A DNA stretch of 61,019 nucleotides, counting the filler, from Porpidia crustulata (lineage: Eukaryota): assembly GCA_964255105.1 (NCBI GenBank). It is 4 parts of 4 records of this genome, joined end to end, with 100 filler letters (N's around TTAATTAATTAA, not from the genome) between each part and the next. Parts side by side here need not be neighbours in the genome. Positions count along the whole stretch, not along the records: positions 30,622 to 45,773 come from CAXUWE010000333.1; 3 more parts are not named here. One strand, given 5' to 3'. A program made the translations under genes and the position numbers. Shown piece after piece: positions 15,221-45,873 of the stretch (the stretch's first letter is position 1; each line of letters starts with the position of its first letter). The notes beneath the pieces were generated by a model that saw nothing but the letters and a program-made list of their open reading frames with translations, was not told the DNA's origin and did no database searches.

Positions 15221-15320
15221 NNNNNNNNNNNNNNNNNNNNNNNNNNNNNNNNNNNNNNNNNNNNTTAATTAATTAANNNNNNNNNNNNNNNNNNNNNNNN
15301 NNNNNNNNNNNNNNNNNNNN
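15221..15320. other. Artificial assembly spacer
   Basis: N44-TTAATTAATTAA-N44, which has stops in all six frames. Confidence 0.98.
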
Positions 15321-30521: not shown

Positions 30522-30621
30522 NNNNNNNNNNNNNNNNNNNNNNNNNNNNNNNNNNNNNNNNNNNNTTAATTAATTAANNNNNNNNNNNNNNNNNNNNNNN
30601 NNNNNNNNNNNNNNNNNNNNN
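30522..30621. other. Artificial assembly spacer
   Basis: N44-TTAATTAATTAA-N44. Confidence 0.98.
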
Positions 30622-32219
30622 CTATCGAACTTGACCGCGCAAGTCCGCTGCTGGGCCTCGAACCCCTCGGGCCGACCACCGGACTCGCAATCCCACCAGC
30701 TCTCGGGGTAATCGATTCGATCCTCATCGTCCCACGGTCCATCACCGCCGCCGCCATGTTCCTTGCCGGCGAGTGCGACGATGCACGCCACCTCCGCCTC
30801 GACCACTGTGACGGTTTTCTCAAACTCGACCCATTGCTTCAGCTCCAGCCGCATGCGGGATTGCTCGGCGCTGAGATACTCCAGCCCCACGTTCGTCCAG
30901 AGCTGTTTCCAGCGTCCGGTGCCGTCCCGGACGTACTCCGGGACCGATGTGGGCGTGCCCACCTTGACGGTCTCGAGCCCGCGCCAGCCGCCGGTCCAGT
31001 CAATCCCAGGTTCGACGCCCAGCGCCCGGATCCATTCGCCGCAGCCGGAGAGGTCGAGCCATTTGAGGCAAATTAGACTCCGGCTGAACCGCCGGAGTAT
31101 TGCCGCGGCCTCGCTGAGGTCGCTGTCGTTAAGGCTAGCGAAGTCACTGGCGGCATGGTTCACACCGCCGTGATGTGTGAGTACGTAGGAGGTGTTGAAG
31201 TAGAGTGTCTTATTCGGAATGGGCCAGTTCGCTAGCGAGAGGTGCGTGAGGGTCGTAAGGTGCGGTACGAATGTGAGTAATAGGTGCCAGGATCCCGAGG
31301 ATGGGCGGGCGAGGGAAAGGTGGGTTAATGATGCGAAGCGGGAAACTGTCAGGGAGGAAAAGAGAAATGGGCACTCCCAGCTATCTGGGACTTTATTACT
31401 TCCAGTCGAGGTTATGTCCCAGAATGGGTGGGTCTGTTTCGGGACAAAGAACTCTTTGAGCTCTCCTAGGGTGAGCGAATGGCCAATGGATGTGGCGAGA
31501 TCAAGGTGTGTCAGTCCTTCCGTCCCTGTTGCGTCTTGTAGCTCGCTGCCATCATAGAATAAAATTCTAAGGTCACAACGGGTGACACTTTGCGGATTGT
31601 AAAAGGCAATGTGGCTCAGAAGCGCTTGCTTGTATCGGATCGGCAGCGTGGCAAGGTATAATTGGTCGTGTTCAACATGCCACTTCCATCTCTGTGCCAT
31701 TACTTTCAACGTTTTGTGTACGAGAGAACGTTCGTCGGGCAGATATTGATCTGGTAGCCCTCCCAAACGATTCGCCCATTTAGGATCTTTCTCCATCTCA
31801 CGTATTCCTTGCTTCTCGTGTCGCAGTTTTGCTGGTGCGTGCATGCTGTCGTTCAGAAATCTACTTGAATTGATCCAGCTGCTGGGCGGTGGAGGTCCCG
31901 CTGGGCCCCTCCCACGTATCGCAAGGGCAGCACTCATGCCAGGTCGCGGTCTTGGTGGAGGGGAGGTTGGAAGTTGGAGGATTGAAATCAAAGATGGATG
32001 AACAGTTTGTGGGTTTAGAGACCCTTGCGAACGCTCTTTGGGAGATGGTTGCGCACGGCTTTTCCTATGATCCTGAATAAGCTGGTTGACCGATCTCTCC
32101 ATGCTTGGTTCTTTGGTAGTGAGTGAGTTTGATCCATGGTTGCTAGCCGATGGCGACAACGAGGGATGCACAGGCGTAGATGGTTTAGTATATTGCAGCG
32201 GTGCTCTCTTCTTGGGCAT
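30622..32219 (-). CDS. Conserved fungal hypothetical protein with LRR-like motifs; 3' end cut by the gap
   Basis: MPKKR..YTKP...VHPSL start; GPAGPPPPSSW; LTHLDL, LTHLSLA twice, LKWLDLSGC..W. Confidence 0.8.
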
Positions 32220-32422
32220 ATAGTGAAGCTTGAACAAGAAATGTTTATATCCTTCCTTGAGCAGTCTACGAGGGACGTTTTAGGCCTTAGGGTTGTTGTT
32301 TCTACCTAGTCGACGACTTGCCTCGCATGTGAATGGAATGTAATGGCAAGGGCCTCTTCTTATCTCCGGGTGCCAATTGGTAACCCCGCGGGGGTTCCGG
32401 CCTTGCCGCGCTTGGTATGCAG

Positions 32423-32803: not shown

Positions 32804-33223
32804 CTACCTCGGGAAGATGGAATTTCCCGGCTCGTGGGCCCAATTTGAGTCGAGACTTGACCCAGTGAGGCCTGAAGTACCTCCAGTCACACCTCCTAAA
32901 GCACCAGCCAGTGCCGCTTCGGGGGAACGTTTGGGGAGCAGTTGGTTTCCTGGCTCGTGGGCCCAATTCGAATCGAGGCTGGACCCAGTAAGGCCAGAGA
33001 TACCGCTGTCGCTGGCTGATCCAACAGATGCGCCTGGTAGAGTACCACCCAGTGACGCCTCAGGGGATCGTTTGTCAAAAAAGAGTTCTTTCCCGATCGC
33101 ACTCACAGCCCGCTTGACGTTGACAAGTTCGGCGATGCCGGCTCGGTTGATCGAGATTGGGAAGGCGAGGCAGGGTGCCAGAATGGAGAGGAAGGCAATA
33201 GTAAAGGTTGATGAAAGCTTCAT
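32804..33223 (-). CDS. Small secreted Kex2-processed repeat protein (KEP-type peptide precursor)
   Basis: Signal peptide MKLSSTFTIAFLSILAPCLA; three KR sites; two KR-SP-EA units each containing SGLTGSSLDSNWAHEPGN. Confidence 0.8.
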   Translation of the reverse strand: MKLSSTFTIAFLSILAPCLAFPISINRAGIAELVNVKRAVSAIGKELFFDKRSPEASLGGTLPGASVGSASDSGISGLTGSSLDSNWAHEPGNQLLPKRSPEAALAGALGGVTGGTSGLTGSSLDSNWAHEPGNSIFPR

Positions 33224-36200
33224 GACGATTTCGACTTTGAGCACTAGATGTTGTGGCCGGTATTTGCTGGCTACGGCTGAGAAAACAGGAAGGCTGGAGC
33301 GGAGATCCTTAGATAGAACTCTGATGTAGTTTCGAGTGTATATGTTTGTCGAGGAAAGCGTATTGGGTCAGAGTAGTGTTGGTCAGATAGGAGGTTGATC
33401 GTATGTGGTGAGTTGGTATTGAGCTTCAAGGATGCTATCAGGGTAATGTGAGGGGGAAGGCAGTATTTATCAACAATTTTTGAAGCGCTGCAGTGTAGAT
33501 CGGTGTACGACATGCGGTGAAACCCTAAATCAAAAAGGCGGAGTGAAGTCTGTTTCGCTGCCCACGTGTGCCGTCTTTGAGCCTTTCGGCTTATGCGGTC
33601 AAATGCTCAGAATGCGATTCGAAACACTATTGAACGAAACGTTTGGATCGACACTGCTAGGTCTGAATAGTCAGCTCGGATTGTGGGGGAGGACTACGCA
33701 CATTGCGGGGCGTATGTATTCTTAAAACGCCCACTGGTCACCCCGTATTGGATGACGTCGAAGCGCAGCAATGTATCGAGAAACCGGTGTAGAGAATACG
33801 GGAGGAGATGAAATGGCAGGGAGAATGCCAAAAGCGAAACGCGATTCGCGTTAGTCGTTGGTGCGGCTGTCGCTTGTTGCCTCCTAGAATTTGAGATCCC
33901 CCTAGTCGCTTGGAACGGGGCAGCGACATTGGCGGGCTTTTCCTCCAGGCATGTCTACTCTGAGTCTGACACATGCCGTGTTTCTCTTGATTTAAATATG
34001 GATTTCCTTCCCAATCGTTGGTCGCACCTGGGGGCCGAAGATCGCGTGACTCTCTTGAGGCCTAGTTTCGTCAGATTGGGTGAACGTCGGTAGCCACCCA
34101 CGTACGATCCGAGGATCCTGGTGTTGATCACTGGCACGATTCTTGGTTGAGAGTTGCGGCTTAGATGACAGCCTAAACACTAATTTGAGCATATCTTAGC
34201 TACCATAGGGGATGTGAGATTGGTAGATGTACCGCGTGATCTCTGTAGTCGTAATTAGGCCACTGTACCTAACACTGGACGAACACTGTGGGGGGGAGGA
34301 TCTGAAGGGAGCCTCGACTATAAACGATCACGCTCAAAAGATTGATCGCTGAAGAGTGGATAGATATGATGATCGAGTGCAATGCCTCGTTATGGTACAC
34401 AGGTCAAACCCCCAAATCCCATGGGATAGGATTGTGTAATCTTCTTTTGGTGACGGGGACTTAGTCTTTGATCTCAAAAACAAATAGTTGAAAGCCAAAG
34501 AGAAAAATTGCACAGAACAAAGCCAATGGTCCTTCACGATGTGCTGTTAAAAGGAACGACTCAACCCATGCCAAATCCCCTAAATGCAGTAGAGCATATC
34601 GTTGACTCCTCTACCATAATTATTGAAGTAGGGAGCTTTATCCGGATCTTGCTTGTGCCTATCCATTAGGAGGAGTGCGCATTTGTGCCTGCGCATTACT
34701 AGTACTGCTGGTCCATGAGGGACATGTAATCTGGATACCGAATTCTGCTCACCAGATGCGCAAATTCCAGAGGAGCCACAGCTTTCGCATTGTTGACGCC
34801 AATAGGAAAATCGTAATTAGCTTAGAAAATCTGAACTGAAATTATTCAAAGTGCTCCATTGCTCACGATGAGATACCTTTGCCTACACATACTGCGGTCA
34901 TAGGTTCGCTGAACTCGTGAACTTTTCCGCGCAATAGATGGTGTTGGTTGATGTCCTTCCCCTGCCCACGATCATTAAGTGCCGTATCATCAGATTTGAT
35001 TTCCCAGGCTACACGATCGGGTTCCTTCTCTTGGGCGCACCCTTCATGGGACCCCTCAAGCGGGCACGACTCTCGATGAAGAATACAAGCTAAATAGACT
35101 TCTCCACAGCGATGTAGACGGCAACGTTCGCCTCTGGTAGTGAAAGGTATAATATGACTTCAGTTGTTCTTGCTCTTTGCTGATAATCGGCCTCTGTTCA
35201 GGTTCTTGCTCGAGGGCCCTTGCCTTGCCGAACACCTCTGATACAGTGAGAGATGCAGCGTACAACCTCAAAATAAAAGTCTAGTTTGGCAGCGATATCT
35301 CCCTGCTCAATCGTATGTTTGAGGTCAATTGATTTCGTGGTTCTTGGAAAGGTGAACTTGCTTCGCCTGGATTAAAGGTAATGAGGTGGGAAACAATCGA
35401 AGCCACAGCAGCGTAACTAAGCTCTCAATGAAGTCTCCAAGTTCAGCCAGTCCATGCCTTTCCTTTTGAGAATCAAAGAAATACGATATACCTCCCGGTC
35501 ATATCTCTTCTCACGGTCGATAGTCATGGAATGCCTCCGATCGAGGAAACCGAAAGCGACTAGAGTTAGTATTAGTAAAGTGTTCAAGGACTCTCTCCAC
35601 TAAACATTGCTCCTCCAACCCGCCAGGCTTTTTATCTGACTGGCAGCCAATCCCAAGGAGGATCAGTCTGCCGGTAATCGTAAAGGTGTCACACTGGCAC
35701 ATAAGCTTCTTCAGCATGTAGCGACTTCGTGCCCACTATCATAATCAGCTGGCTTTATGAGCTCTAGTTCGAGAGTCGTTACGGATGACGATACGTTTCG
35801 AGGCTCTAACAATGGGAAACTCTGGACGGAAGACATGGAGCTTCCCACCGCCCAATTCCTGGCAAGCGACTGCAGCACTCTAATCATCAGTACCAGTCGC
35901 TTTGTCGTAAGGACGGGAATTGCTTCAATTATTTCCTAGAAGAGTGGCACAAAGTTTTCTGATTCTAAGCCTTGCACAGCATGTGCAGCCGCAACCTTAA
36001 TGCGAAGGGTGTCTATGTGGGTGTCCTCAGCACGCTGGATCGAGTCACCGGTTGTTGCGTCTTTTTCAGGGCTTACAGCTACTGCCTGAATGCTGAGGAT
36101 ATCCACAGCTTGGTCTCAATGACTGGAATCGGGTCGACCAGTCGGGAGCTGTCGGTAGATTTTGTAGATAGAGGGACCTTTTCATGATCCTTCACTGGCC

Positions 36201-45773: not shown

Positions 45774-45873
45774 NNNNNNNNNNNNNNNNNNNNNNNNNNN
45801 NNNNNNNNNNNNNNNNNTTAATTAATTAANNNNNNNNNNNNNNNNNNNNNNNNNNNNNNNNNNNNNNNNNNNN
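45774..45873. other. Artificial assembly spacer
   Basis: N44-TTAATTAATTAA-N44. Confidence 0.98.

Follow-up and report, generated by a model that had tools for sequence, protein, structure and literature searches.

Kex2-processed repeat proteins (KEPs) of fungi are defined in PMC6339444, where the Kex2/Kex1 pathway that matures the alpha-factor is also summarised, and they are treated again in PMC7329392. One criterion of the pipeline that mines for KEPs is that cleavage in silico at Lys-Arg (KR) or Arg-Arg (RR) leaves at least four fragments (PMC6339444). A survey of 1461 strains reports 7878 KEPs, made up of 838 types as well as 2560 stand-alone proteins, and most of the types have no known function (PMC7329392). 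Genes of the DUF3328 family lie on average 3.09 genes from the KEP gene, within 15 genes; 78% of KEPs are without one, and tyrosine, which is present in 65.6% of the DUF3328-linked KEPs, is frequent, not obligatory (PMC7329392). Here we describe a gene in a stretch of 61,019 nucleotides, filler included, of the genome of Porpidia crustulata (GCA_964255105.1), which is referred to throughout as the window. The gene lies on the minus strand at 32804..33223 and encodes a precursor of 139 amino acids (aa) with two units that share a NWAHEP motif. Judging from its sequence, we consider it probable that this precursor represents a new sequence family of the known KEP class, one that would release linear acidic peptides with a conserved C-terminal epitope.

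RESULTS

A minus-strand gene encodes a precursor with two similar units

The translation of the open reading frame (ORF) reads, in order, MKLSSTFTIAFLSILAPCLA, FPISINRAGIAELVNV-KR, AVSAIGKELFFD-KR, SPEA-SLGGTLPGASVGSASDSGI-SGLTGSSLDSNWAHEPGN-QLLP-KR and SPEA-ALAGALGGVTGGT-SGLTGSSLDSNWAHEPGN-SIFP-R. Within the precursor, unit 1 thus has the form SPEA-spacer-SGLTGSSLDSNWAHEPGNQLLP-KR and unit 2 the form SPEA-spacer-SGLTGSSLDSNWAHEPGNSIFP-R. The features of the gene are as follows, where pN/pS is the ratio of non-synonymous to synonymous differences per site.

32804..33223, minus strand: precursor coding sequence (CDS), complete and intron-less, 139 aa, from an ATG-to-stop ORF, same-frame homologs and a peak of substitutions at codon position 3; stop codon at 32804-32806
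33164..33223, minus strand: predicted signal peptide MKLSSTFTIAFLSILAPCLA, aa 1-20, cut before FPIS, from hydropathy, C at -3 and A at -1, and a predicted helix at aa 4-19
33110..33163, minus strand: propeptide 1, FPISINRAGIAELVNV, with the first KR (K37-R38, 33110-33115); VKR invariant, pro-region pN/pS 0.22-0.49
33068..33109, minus strand: propeptide 2, AVSAIGKELFFD, with the second KR (K51-R52, 33068-33073), which is present in every sequence covering the site
32927..33067, minus strand: unit 1, aa 53-99, with SP-EA dipeptides, a G/S/A-rich spacer (pN/pS 0.81), the core, QLLP and KR (32927-32932)
32945..32998, minus strand: core 1, 18 aa, SGLTGSSLDSNWAHEPGN, aa 76-93, with only synonymous differences from core 2; its decapeptide DSNWAHEPGN lies at 32945-32974 (blastn match 32945-32974)
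32807..32926, minus strand: unit 2, aa 100-139, with SP-EA, spacer, core, SIFP and a terminal R; a terminal K/R, or KR and a short tail, in all orthologs
32822..32875, minus strand: core 2, 18 aa, aa 117-134, identical in protein to core 1 (repeat finder and codon comparison); its decapeptide lies at 32822-32851

This is a genuine coding gene of the minus strand, because substitutions relative to its orthologs (described below) peak at the third codon position: the counts at positions 1, 2 and 3 are 37, 24 and 76 in the comparison with ortholog L001 and 41, 26 and 70 in that with L003. A plus-strand ORF of 170 aa that overlaps the gene (32817-33329) is longer than the peptide ORF itself; it is interrupted by three to six stops in the orthologs and is open in the window only, and it results from the peptide gene's codon composition. 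The first-pass annotation had placed a gene on this strand and had read it as a signal peptide, a propeptide and two KR-SPEA-spacer-core units. The ORF translation matches that layout, and both the third-position peak and the broken antisense ORF bear out the choice of strand. In a soil metatranscriptome, a single contig of 167 nt spans 32924-33090 with six differences; of the four that are listed, three fall at third positions and one changes T61 to S in the spacer. Since the contig could derive from DNA carry-over, it is at most a hint that the peptide gene is expressed. Another sequencing run contains the whole stretch without a difference and may be where the window comes from.

The N-terminus looks like a plausible signal peptide, as had been proposed, with a Kyte-Doolittle maximum of 2.45 at aa 9-19, a C-x-A motif ahead of the predicted cut and a cleavage region (L19, A20, F21, P22, I23 and S24) that is invariant in 10 sequences. 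Hydropathy and inspection revealed one hydrophobic stretch only, aa 5-25, and no other membrane segment. AlphaFold2, run with the family alignment, predicted no fold (mean predicted local distance difference test score, pLDDT, 52; predicted template modelling score, pTM, 0.15); the predicted helices are confined to the signal peptide and the pro-region, and the one at aa 27-47 is of low confidence. The precursor has no Tyr and a single Cys, which lies within the signal peptide, and Trp and His occur once each in either core. The unit peptides are predicted to be 45 and 39 residues long, with net charges of -4 and -3 and no N-glycosylation sequon. No Pfam family matches the precursor at E values up to 0.01, and the best scores in the ESM Atlas, 0.76 and 0.75, are under any useful level.

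The core is conserved by selection within a very small family

A word-indexed search of 5.8 billion proteins returned 9 homologs of 120-138 aa (E values of 1e-28 to 8e-34, 48-55% identity, same frame), none of which has a Pfam domain, and only 3 clusters emerged when 1.84 billion representatives were scanned exhaustively with HMMER. After a profile search the family comprised 11 proteins. Longer forms of the family, sought with the profile, did not turn up, which is weak evidence that there are none, and the window's own protein was not present in the protein collection searched. A scan of metagenome contigs detected 8 fungal loci (L001-L008), on eukaryotic contigs of up to 257 kb. Wherever the flanks reach, the order of genes is the same as in the window, namely a DUF6590 gene, a DEAD-box helicase gene, the peptide gene and a gene of 569 aa, and the neighbouring genes have 61-90% protein identity to those of the window. 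Because this gene order is shared, the peptide genes of the window and of these loci are orthologs. The gene had been described as an orphan; that is wrong, for it belongs to a very small, conserved and syntenic family of 16 distinct sequences in all.

Ten full-length proteins were aligned. Invariant among them are L-A-F-P-I-S, V-K-R-A, the second K-R, the third K-R-S and, in both units, D-x-N-W-A-H-E-P-x-N. Both units still had D, N, W, A, E and P as invariant residues once a fragment and the distant relative P0011 had been included. The core shared across species is therefore formed by the C-terminal 10 residues, D-[SP]-N-W-A-H-E-P-[GDN]-N. SGLTGSSL, the front of the 18-aa core, is peculiar to this genome. 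Its place is taken in other lineages by SRI, HQI or HNL, and these variants are often common to both units of one protein. Thus, the conserved core of 18 aa that had been claimed is identical between the two units of this gene, and across species only about 10 of its residues are conserved.

We compared pN/pS by region between the window and three orthologs. Synonymous sites are saturated in these comparisons (pS 0.5-0.9). The cores gave ratios of 0.12-0.32, the signal peptide 0.16-0.27 and the pro-region 0.22-0.49, whereas the spacers reached 0.67-0.81. This regional contrast indicates that a core of about 10-14 residues is under purifying selection, together with the signal peptide, pro-region and processing sites, and it upholds the earlier suggestion that the peptide core is under selection. 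The Gly/Ser/Ala-rich spacers drift almost neutrally and take insertions and deletions.

Eight of the 18 codons differ between the two cores of the window (for S, L, S, S, D, S, P and N), all at the third position and all synonymously, and they are exactly the codons that the first-pass annotation had listed. There are no non-synonymous differences over about 41 sites, and pS is 0.62 over 13 synonymous sites; the chance that eight random substitutions in the core would all be synonymous is about 1e-5. The duplicated DNA was found independently by a repeat finder, as 59 nt of 85% identity with a spacing of 123 nt.

Dibasic sites are retained around the units, and the number of units varies

KR is present at the same three positions in 13 of the 13 full-length distinct sequences, and a fourth KR is found in the three-unit ortholog L002 and in the forms with a C-terminal tail. 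The residue behind each KR is A or S; the sites that stand ahead of a unit are followed by SP, SA or AP, and the corresponding sequence in the distant relative P0011 is RR-DAEA, retained before its second unit. We counted 33 NWA[HQ]EP units across the 16 distinct sequences. In 32 of them, KR, RR or a terminal K/R lies within the next 6-8 residues; in the one exception, 6 residues are inserted ahead of the KR. Three lineages have a full KR and a short tail behind the last unit, and in the others a single K or R forms the end of the protein. Since these three lineages keep the full site, the terminal K/R is probably the remnant of a processing site, and such ends are what one would expect if the C-terminus of the product were set by trimming of the Kex2/Kex1 type, by analogy with the alpha-factor pathway.

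The Kex2/Ste13 signature noted in the first-pass annotation thus holds across the family, with KR in all 13 proteins and a Ste13-type dipeptide (SP, SA, AP or DA) behind it ahead of the units, and the loss of KR sites in homologs, which would have told against it, was not seen at any of the three positions. The idea that the conserved 18-mer is released directly after the Ste13 site is not supported. In the window the spacer between the Ste13-type dipeptides and the core is 17-23 residues long and contains no dibasic site, so that simple Kex2/Ste13 cleavage would be expected to leave products of about 35-45 residues instead of the 18-mer.

The L002 ortholog (L002:10001-10477, 158 aa) has three units. 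Its middle unit is a hybrid, in which the unit-2 spacer and D-P are joined to the unit-1 tail P-N-N-Q-M-L-P-K-R, and the junction falls within AATTGGGCTCACGAGCC, a stretch that is identical across all units. Because the hybrid unit is joined within identical DNA, the three-unit form arose through unequal crossover inside the NWAHEP-coding sequence. Unequal crossing-over is the usual route by which KEPs gain units. A separate observation concerns the same stretch of DNA. The codons for N-W-A-H-E (AAT TGG GCy CAC GAG) are the same in 11 of 11 units of 5 sequences, those of the window and L001-L004, while neighbouring synonymous sites vary; the third base of the Ala codon is C in both window units (32954-32968 and 32831-32845) and T in all others. 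This uniformity may be due to chance together with gene conversion of short tracts between units, or, alternatively, there may be a constraint at the nucleotide level.

A conserved block lies upstream of the gene

The sequence upstream of the gene contains two features.

33452..34054, minus strand: non-coding upstream block, presumed promoter, at about -230 to -830, with 72-76% identity to L001, L003 and L004
33464-33470, minus strand: TATA-like ATAAATA, at -247 from the ATG, conserved at -233 to -284 across loci

The identity of the block is as high as that of the CDS, though synonymous sites are saturated. It is not a coding region, as it has frame-breaking insertions and deletions and there are stops in every tblastx alignment across it, and it has no match to a known RNA in Rfam. 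GAAAC cores occur in the block at 7-9 per kb, compared with 2.0 per kb window-wide. At one aligned site, six of the six orthologous loci examined have a full TGAAACA; the window has CGAAACA there and no full TGAAACA within 1 kb upstream of the peptide gene. We take TGAAACA to be the pheromone-response element of Ste12 and treat it as a lead only.

No tailoring genes are clustered with the peptide gene

We scanned all 125 stop-to-stop ORFs of at least 90 aa in the window against Pfam, a set from which exons shorter than 90 aa could escape, and found no DUF3328/UstYa, P450, methyltransferase or tyrosinase gene among them. Likewise, no DUF3328, P450, methyltransferase or tyrosinase match was found among the 47 ORFs of at least 100 aa of L001 and L003. 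The first-pass annotation had seen no DUF3328/UstYa oxidase in the window and had for that reason preferred a linear peptide over a dikaritin; the scans of the window and of both orthologous loci agree with it on the first point and support it on the second. The peptides are most likely linear, without cyclisation by a DUF3328 enzyme. Because no DUF3328 gene is nearby, the peptide gene is of the 'unaccompanied' kind, like pheromone genes. The matches that the window does contain are to Cse1, tuberin/Rap-GAP, DUF3431, an Hrd1-type RING ligase, an MFS transporter, a DEAD-box helicase, an aromatic amino acid lyase, OTU1, Nop56, a TCP-1 subunit and GH47, a set that can be called housekeeping.

The gene that lies directly downstream of the peptide gene is syntenic in all 8 loci.

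30573-32279, minus strand: ORF of 569 aa, 61% identity over 301 residues

This neighbour has no Pfam match and no sequence match in the PDB. By eye it shows LTHLxL motifs resembling leucine-rich repeats, and its 3' end enters a stretch of N. We rejected it as a partner enzyme, as it has neither such a match nor a signal peptide and nothing links it to the peptide. Six runs of 44 N are also present in the window; they form three pairs spaced by about 15.3 kb (15221-15320, 30522-30621 and 45774-45873) and are not biology.

On the other side of the peptide gene the loci differ. In L001, an Argonaute-like ORF of 1017 aa with PAZ and Piwi domains (L001:5227-8277) lies between the DEAD-box helicase gene and the peptide gene, and an ORF of 424 aa with a PAZ match (L003:1596-2867) occupies the equivalent place in L003. 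The window holds only faint, colinear remnants (34872-35669): residues 900-1010 of the L001 protein align with 34872-35196 (E 7e-5) and residues 162-224 with 35483-35669 (E 0.08). For this reason the Argonaute-like gene seems to have been lost or to have decayed in this genome. A second conserved block, at 34565-34848 (67-75% identity), corresponds to the 3' end of the L001 Argonaute-like gene and the sequence just downstream of it.

DISCUSSION

The precursor fits the operational definition of a KEP because it combines a signal peptide, four fragments and a repeated motif. KR at 37-38, 51-52 and 98-99 leaves four fragments after removal of the signal peptide; hydropathy and inspection point to no membrane segment other than the signal peptide; and the repeated motif is near-identical, with two identical 18-aa cores here, three units in L002 and 33 units in the family. 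From these features we infer secretion, each of the cleavages and a signalling role, in the following way. The signal peptide would be removed after Ala20, and Kex2 would cut after KR38, KR52 and KR99 in the late Golgi. Kex1 would then trim the C-terminal basic residues, the terminal R139 included, and Ste13 may take off the SP and EA dipeptides. Two short propeptides are the expected products, along with two acidic peptides, related to each other and unstructured, that would have about 35-45 residues and, if the precursor is processed as a KEP, would end in ...NWAHEPGNQLLP and ...NWAHEPGNSIFP. The functional epitope would be [ILM]-D-[SP]-NWAHEP-[GDN]-N plus about four hydrophobic residues, in the C-terminal part of each peptide. 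Most likely this epitope would be a ligand, and the peptide a signal whose receiver is either the fungus itself or a partner organism. The signalling role is argued by analogy, and we rate it as less probable than the proposed precursor mechanism.

Several points weigh against this assignment. With a spacer of 17-23 residues, either the products are unusually long for a KEP or a pheromone or a further protease is needed. There are only two units, the minimum for a 'repeat' protein. The pipeline of Le Marquer et al. puts the C-terminal fragment aside in its first pass (PMC6339444), which would hamper the detection of two-unit proteins such as that of the window. Finally, cleavage is predicted from sequence, transcription of the gene is presumed and signalling is proposed from the behaviour of similar peptides.

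The NWAHEP peptide might be a new fungal peptide hormone, that is, a Cys-free alpha-type pheromone of a lineage in which none has been recognised so far, or a non-sexual signal with a Ste13 signature that would act on the fungus itself or on a partner, under an unusually conserved, GAAAC-rich promoter of about 600 nt. This proposal is tentative and rather doubtful. If it were true, the long and nearly neutral spacers would call for a processing step beyond Kex2, Kex1 and Ste13.

A more specific version, in which the gene encodes a divergent precursor of an alpha-type mating pheromone (the equivalent of ppg1/ppgA) and the NWAHEP peptide is the ligand of a Ste2/Pre2-type receptor, appears unlikely. 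The alpha-factor architecture of signal peptide, KR, XP/XA dipeptides and repeated peptide followed by a KEX site is matched here, and two-repeat alpha precursors of 89 aa are on record (PMC10569646); in the alpha pheromones, however, a peptide of 9-14 aa stands directly behind the Ste13 sites, and in the window the Ste13 site is separated from the core by the spacer, with the KEX site about 4 residues past the core. For Ascomycota, the Ste13 signature is described as 'generally only dedicated' to alpha pheromones, and Cys-free alpha cores specific to a lineage exist, such as PYG[L/M]P[I/V]G of the Pleosporales (PMC6339444), but the core of the window lacks the two cysteines that are typical of most Pezizomycotina alpha pheromones. 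Both window units contain W-x-H-x-P-G-[N/Q], loosely like the Xylona motif RFCHLPGQGCSK (PMC6339444). Of the turn dipeptides GQ and PG that mark mature alpha repeats, PG is found in only 12 of the 33 units, both window units included, the rest having PN, PD or PA. The absence of an accompanying DUF3328 gene is shared with alpha pheromone genes (PMC7329392). The GAAAC cluster of the conserved, presumed promoter, with TGAAACA at the aligned site of all six orthologous loci, would also suit a pheromone gene, but the window itself lacks the full element in the 1 kb upstream. Furthermore, there was no match to Pfam MF_alpha or MF_alpha_N at E values up to 0.01, the family is very narrow, with 3 clusters, and the MAT-flanking genes SLA2 and APN2 did not turn up in the Pfam scans of the window, where no search by name was made.

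The precursor could instead be that of a ribosomally synthesised peptide modified after translation (RiPP), with the core, for example, cross-linked through Trp/His or cyclised by tailoring enzymes whose genes lie in another part of the genome. We consider this improbable. Some DUF3328-associated KEP types are described as having W with P, or di-histidine motifs, in place of Tyr, and a survey of RiPPs in lichens describes DUF3328 clusters without a recognisable precursor, which may sit outside the cluster (PMC12048977). The strict invariance of N-W-A-H-E-P would suit a recognition motif of an enzyme or a modified motif. However, the precursor is without Tyr and has just 2-3 units, the Pfam scans of the window, L001 and L003 revealed no DUF3328, tyrosinase, methyltransferase or P450 gene, and DUF3328 genes lie on average 3.09 genes from the KEP gene (PMC7329392). 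The long, nearly neutral spacers are also unlike the 8-14-aa repeats of known dikaritin precursors (PMC7329392).

We give equally little credence to the view that this is a small protein, secreted or wall-associated, that works in one piece, or minus its pro-region, and whose NWAHEP motifs are binding sites, with metal ions, wall polymers and partner proteins as examples of what they might bind. The pro-region is constrained as strongly as the cores, the D, H, E and W of the core could make a binding motif, and the products of a Kex2-processed repeat protein can remain on the hyphal surface, as does Rep1 of Ustilago (PMC6339444). Against a protein that acts whole, the inter-unit KR and the final KR or K/R are kept in all sequences while adjacent residues vary, no fold was predicted (mean pLDDT 52) and the number of units varies among orthologs. 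An antimicrobial or lytic peptide is unlikely because the predicted products are anionic and Gly/Ser-rich.

As a putative KEP, the precursor offers a test case with a short invariant epitope, selection on that epitope against neutral spacers, conserved processing sites, a copy-number change caught in the act and a strongly conserved, presumed promoter, at a time when almost no KEPs have a known function beyond pheromones and a few toxins. If the peptide is a signal, sexual or not, it would extend the short list of peptide hormones known from fungi by one ligand and would show that two-unit precursors slip past current KEP mining pipelines. The string NWAHEP was absent from a full-text literature search and from the supplements, covered in part, of PMC7329392, PMC6339444 and PMC12048977; its absence from Table S2 of PMC6339444 carries little weight, as that table was covered incompletely.

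Comparison with known systems

With the KEPs described by Le Marquer et al. in 2019 (PMC6339444) and by Umemura in 2020 (PMC7329392), the window precursor shares a signal peptide, four KR/RR fragments, a repeated motif, XP/XA behind KR, a copy number that varies among relatives and the lack of a DUF3328 gene nearby. It differs from them in having only two units (three in one ortholog), long and nearly neutral spacers between the Ste13-type site and the core, and a conserved pro-region with two extra KR sites.

With the alpha precursors MF-alpha, Ccg-4, Ppg1 and PpgA it shares the prepro architecture, the Kex2/Kex1/Ste13 signatures, the lack of clustered tailoring genes and a conserved peptide, present in at least two copies, that contains Trp and a turn-like motif centred on Pro. 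It differs in that Pfam detects no homology, the core is Cys-free and does not stand beside the Ste13 site. The predicted products, at 35-45 residues, are also longer than the alpha pheromones, which have 9-14 (PMC10569646).

Like the dikaritin precursors (ustiloxin UstA, phomopsin PhomA and asperipin-2a AprA), the precursor is predicted to be secreted and has a repeated core bounded by KR. In contrast to them, it has no Tyr and no DUF3328/UstYa gene in the window or the scanned loci, and its units are of 40-47 residues, compared with 8-14 in the dikaritin precursors.

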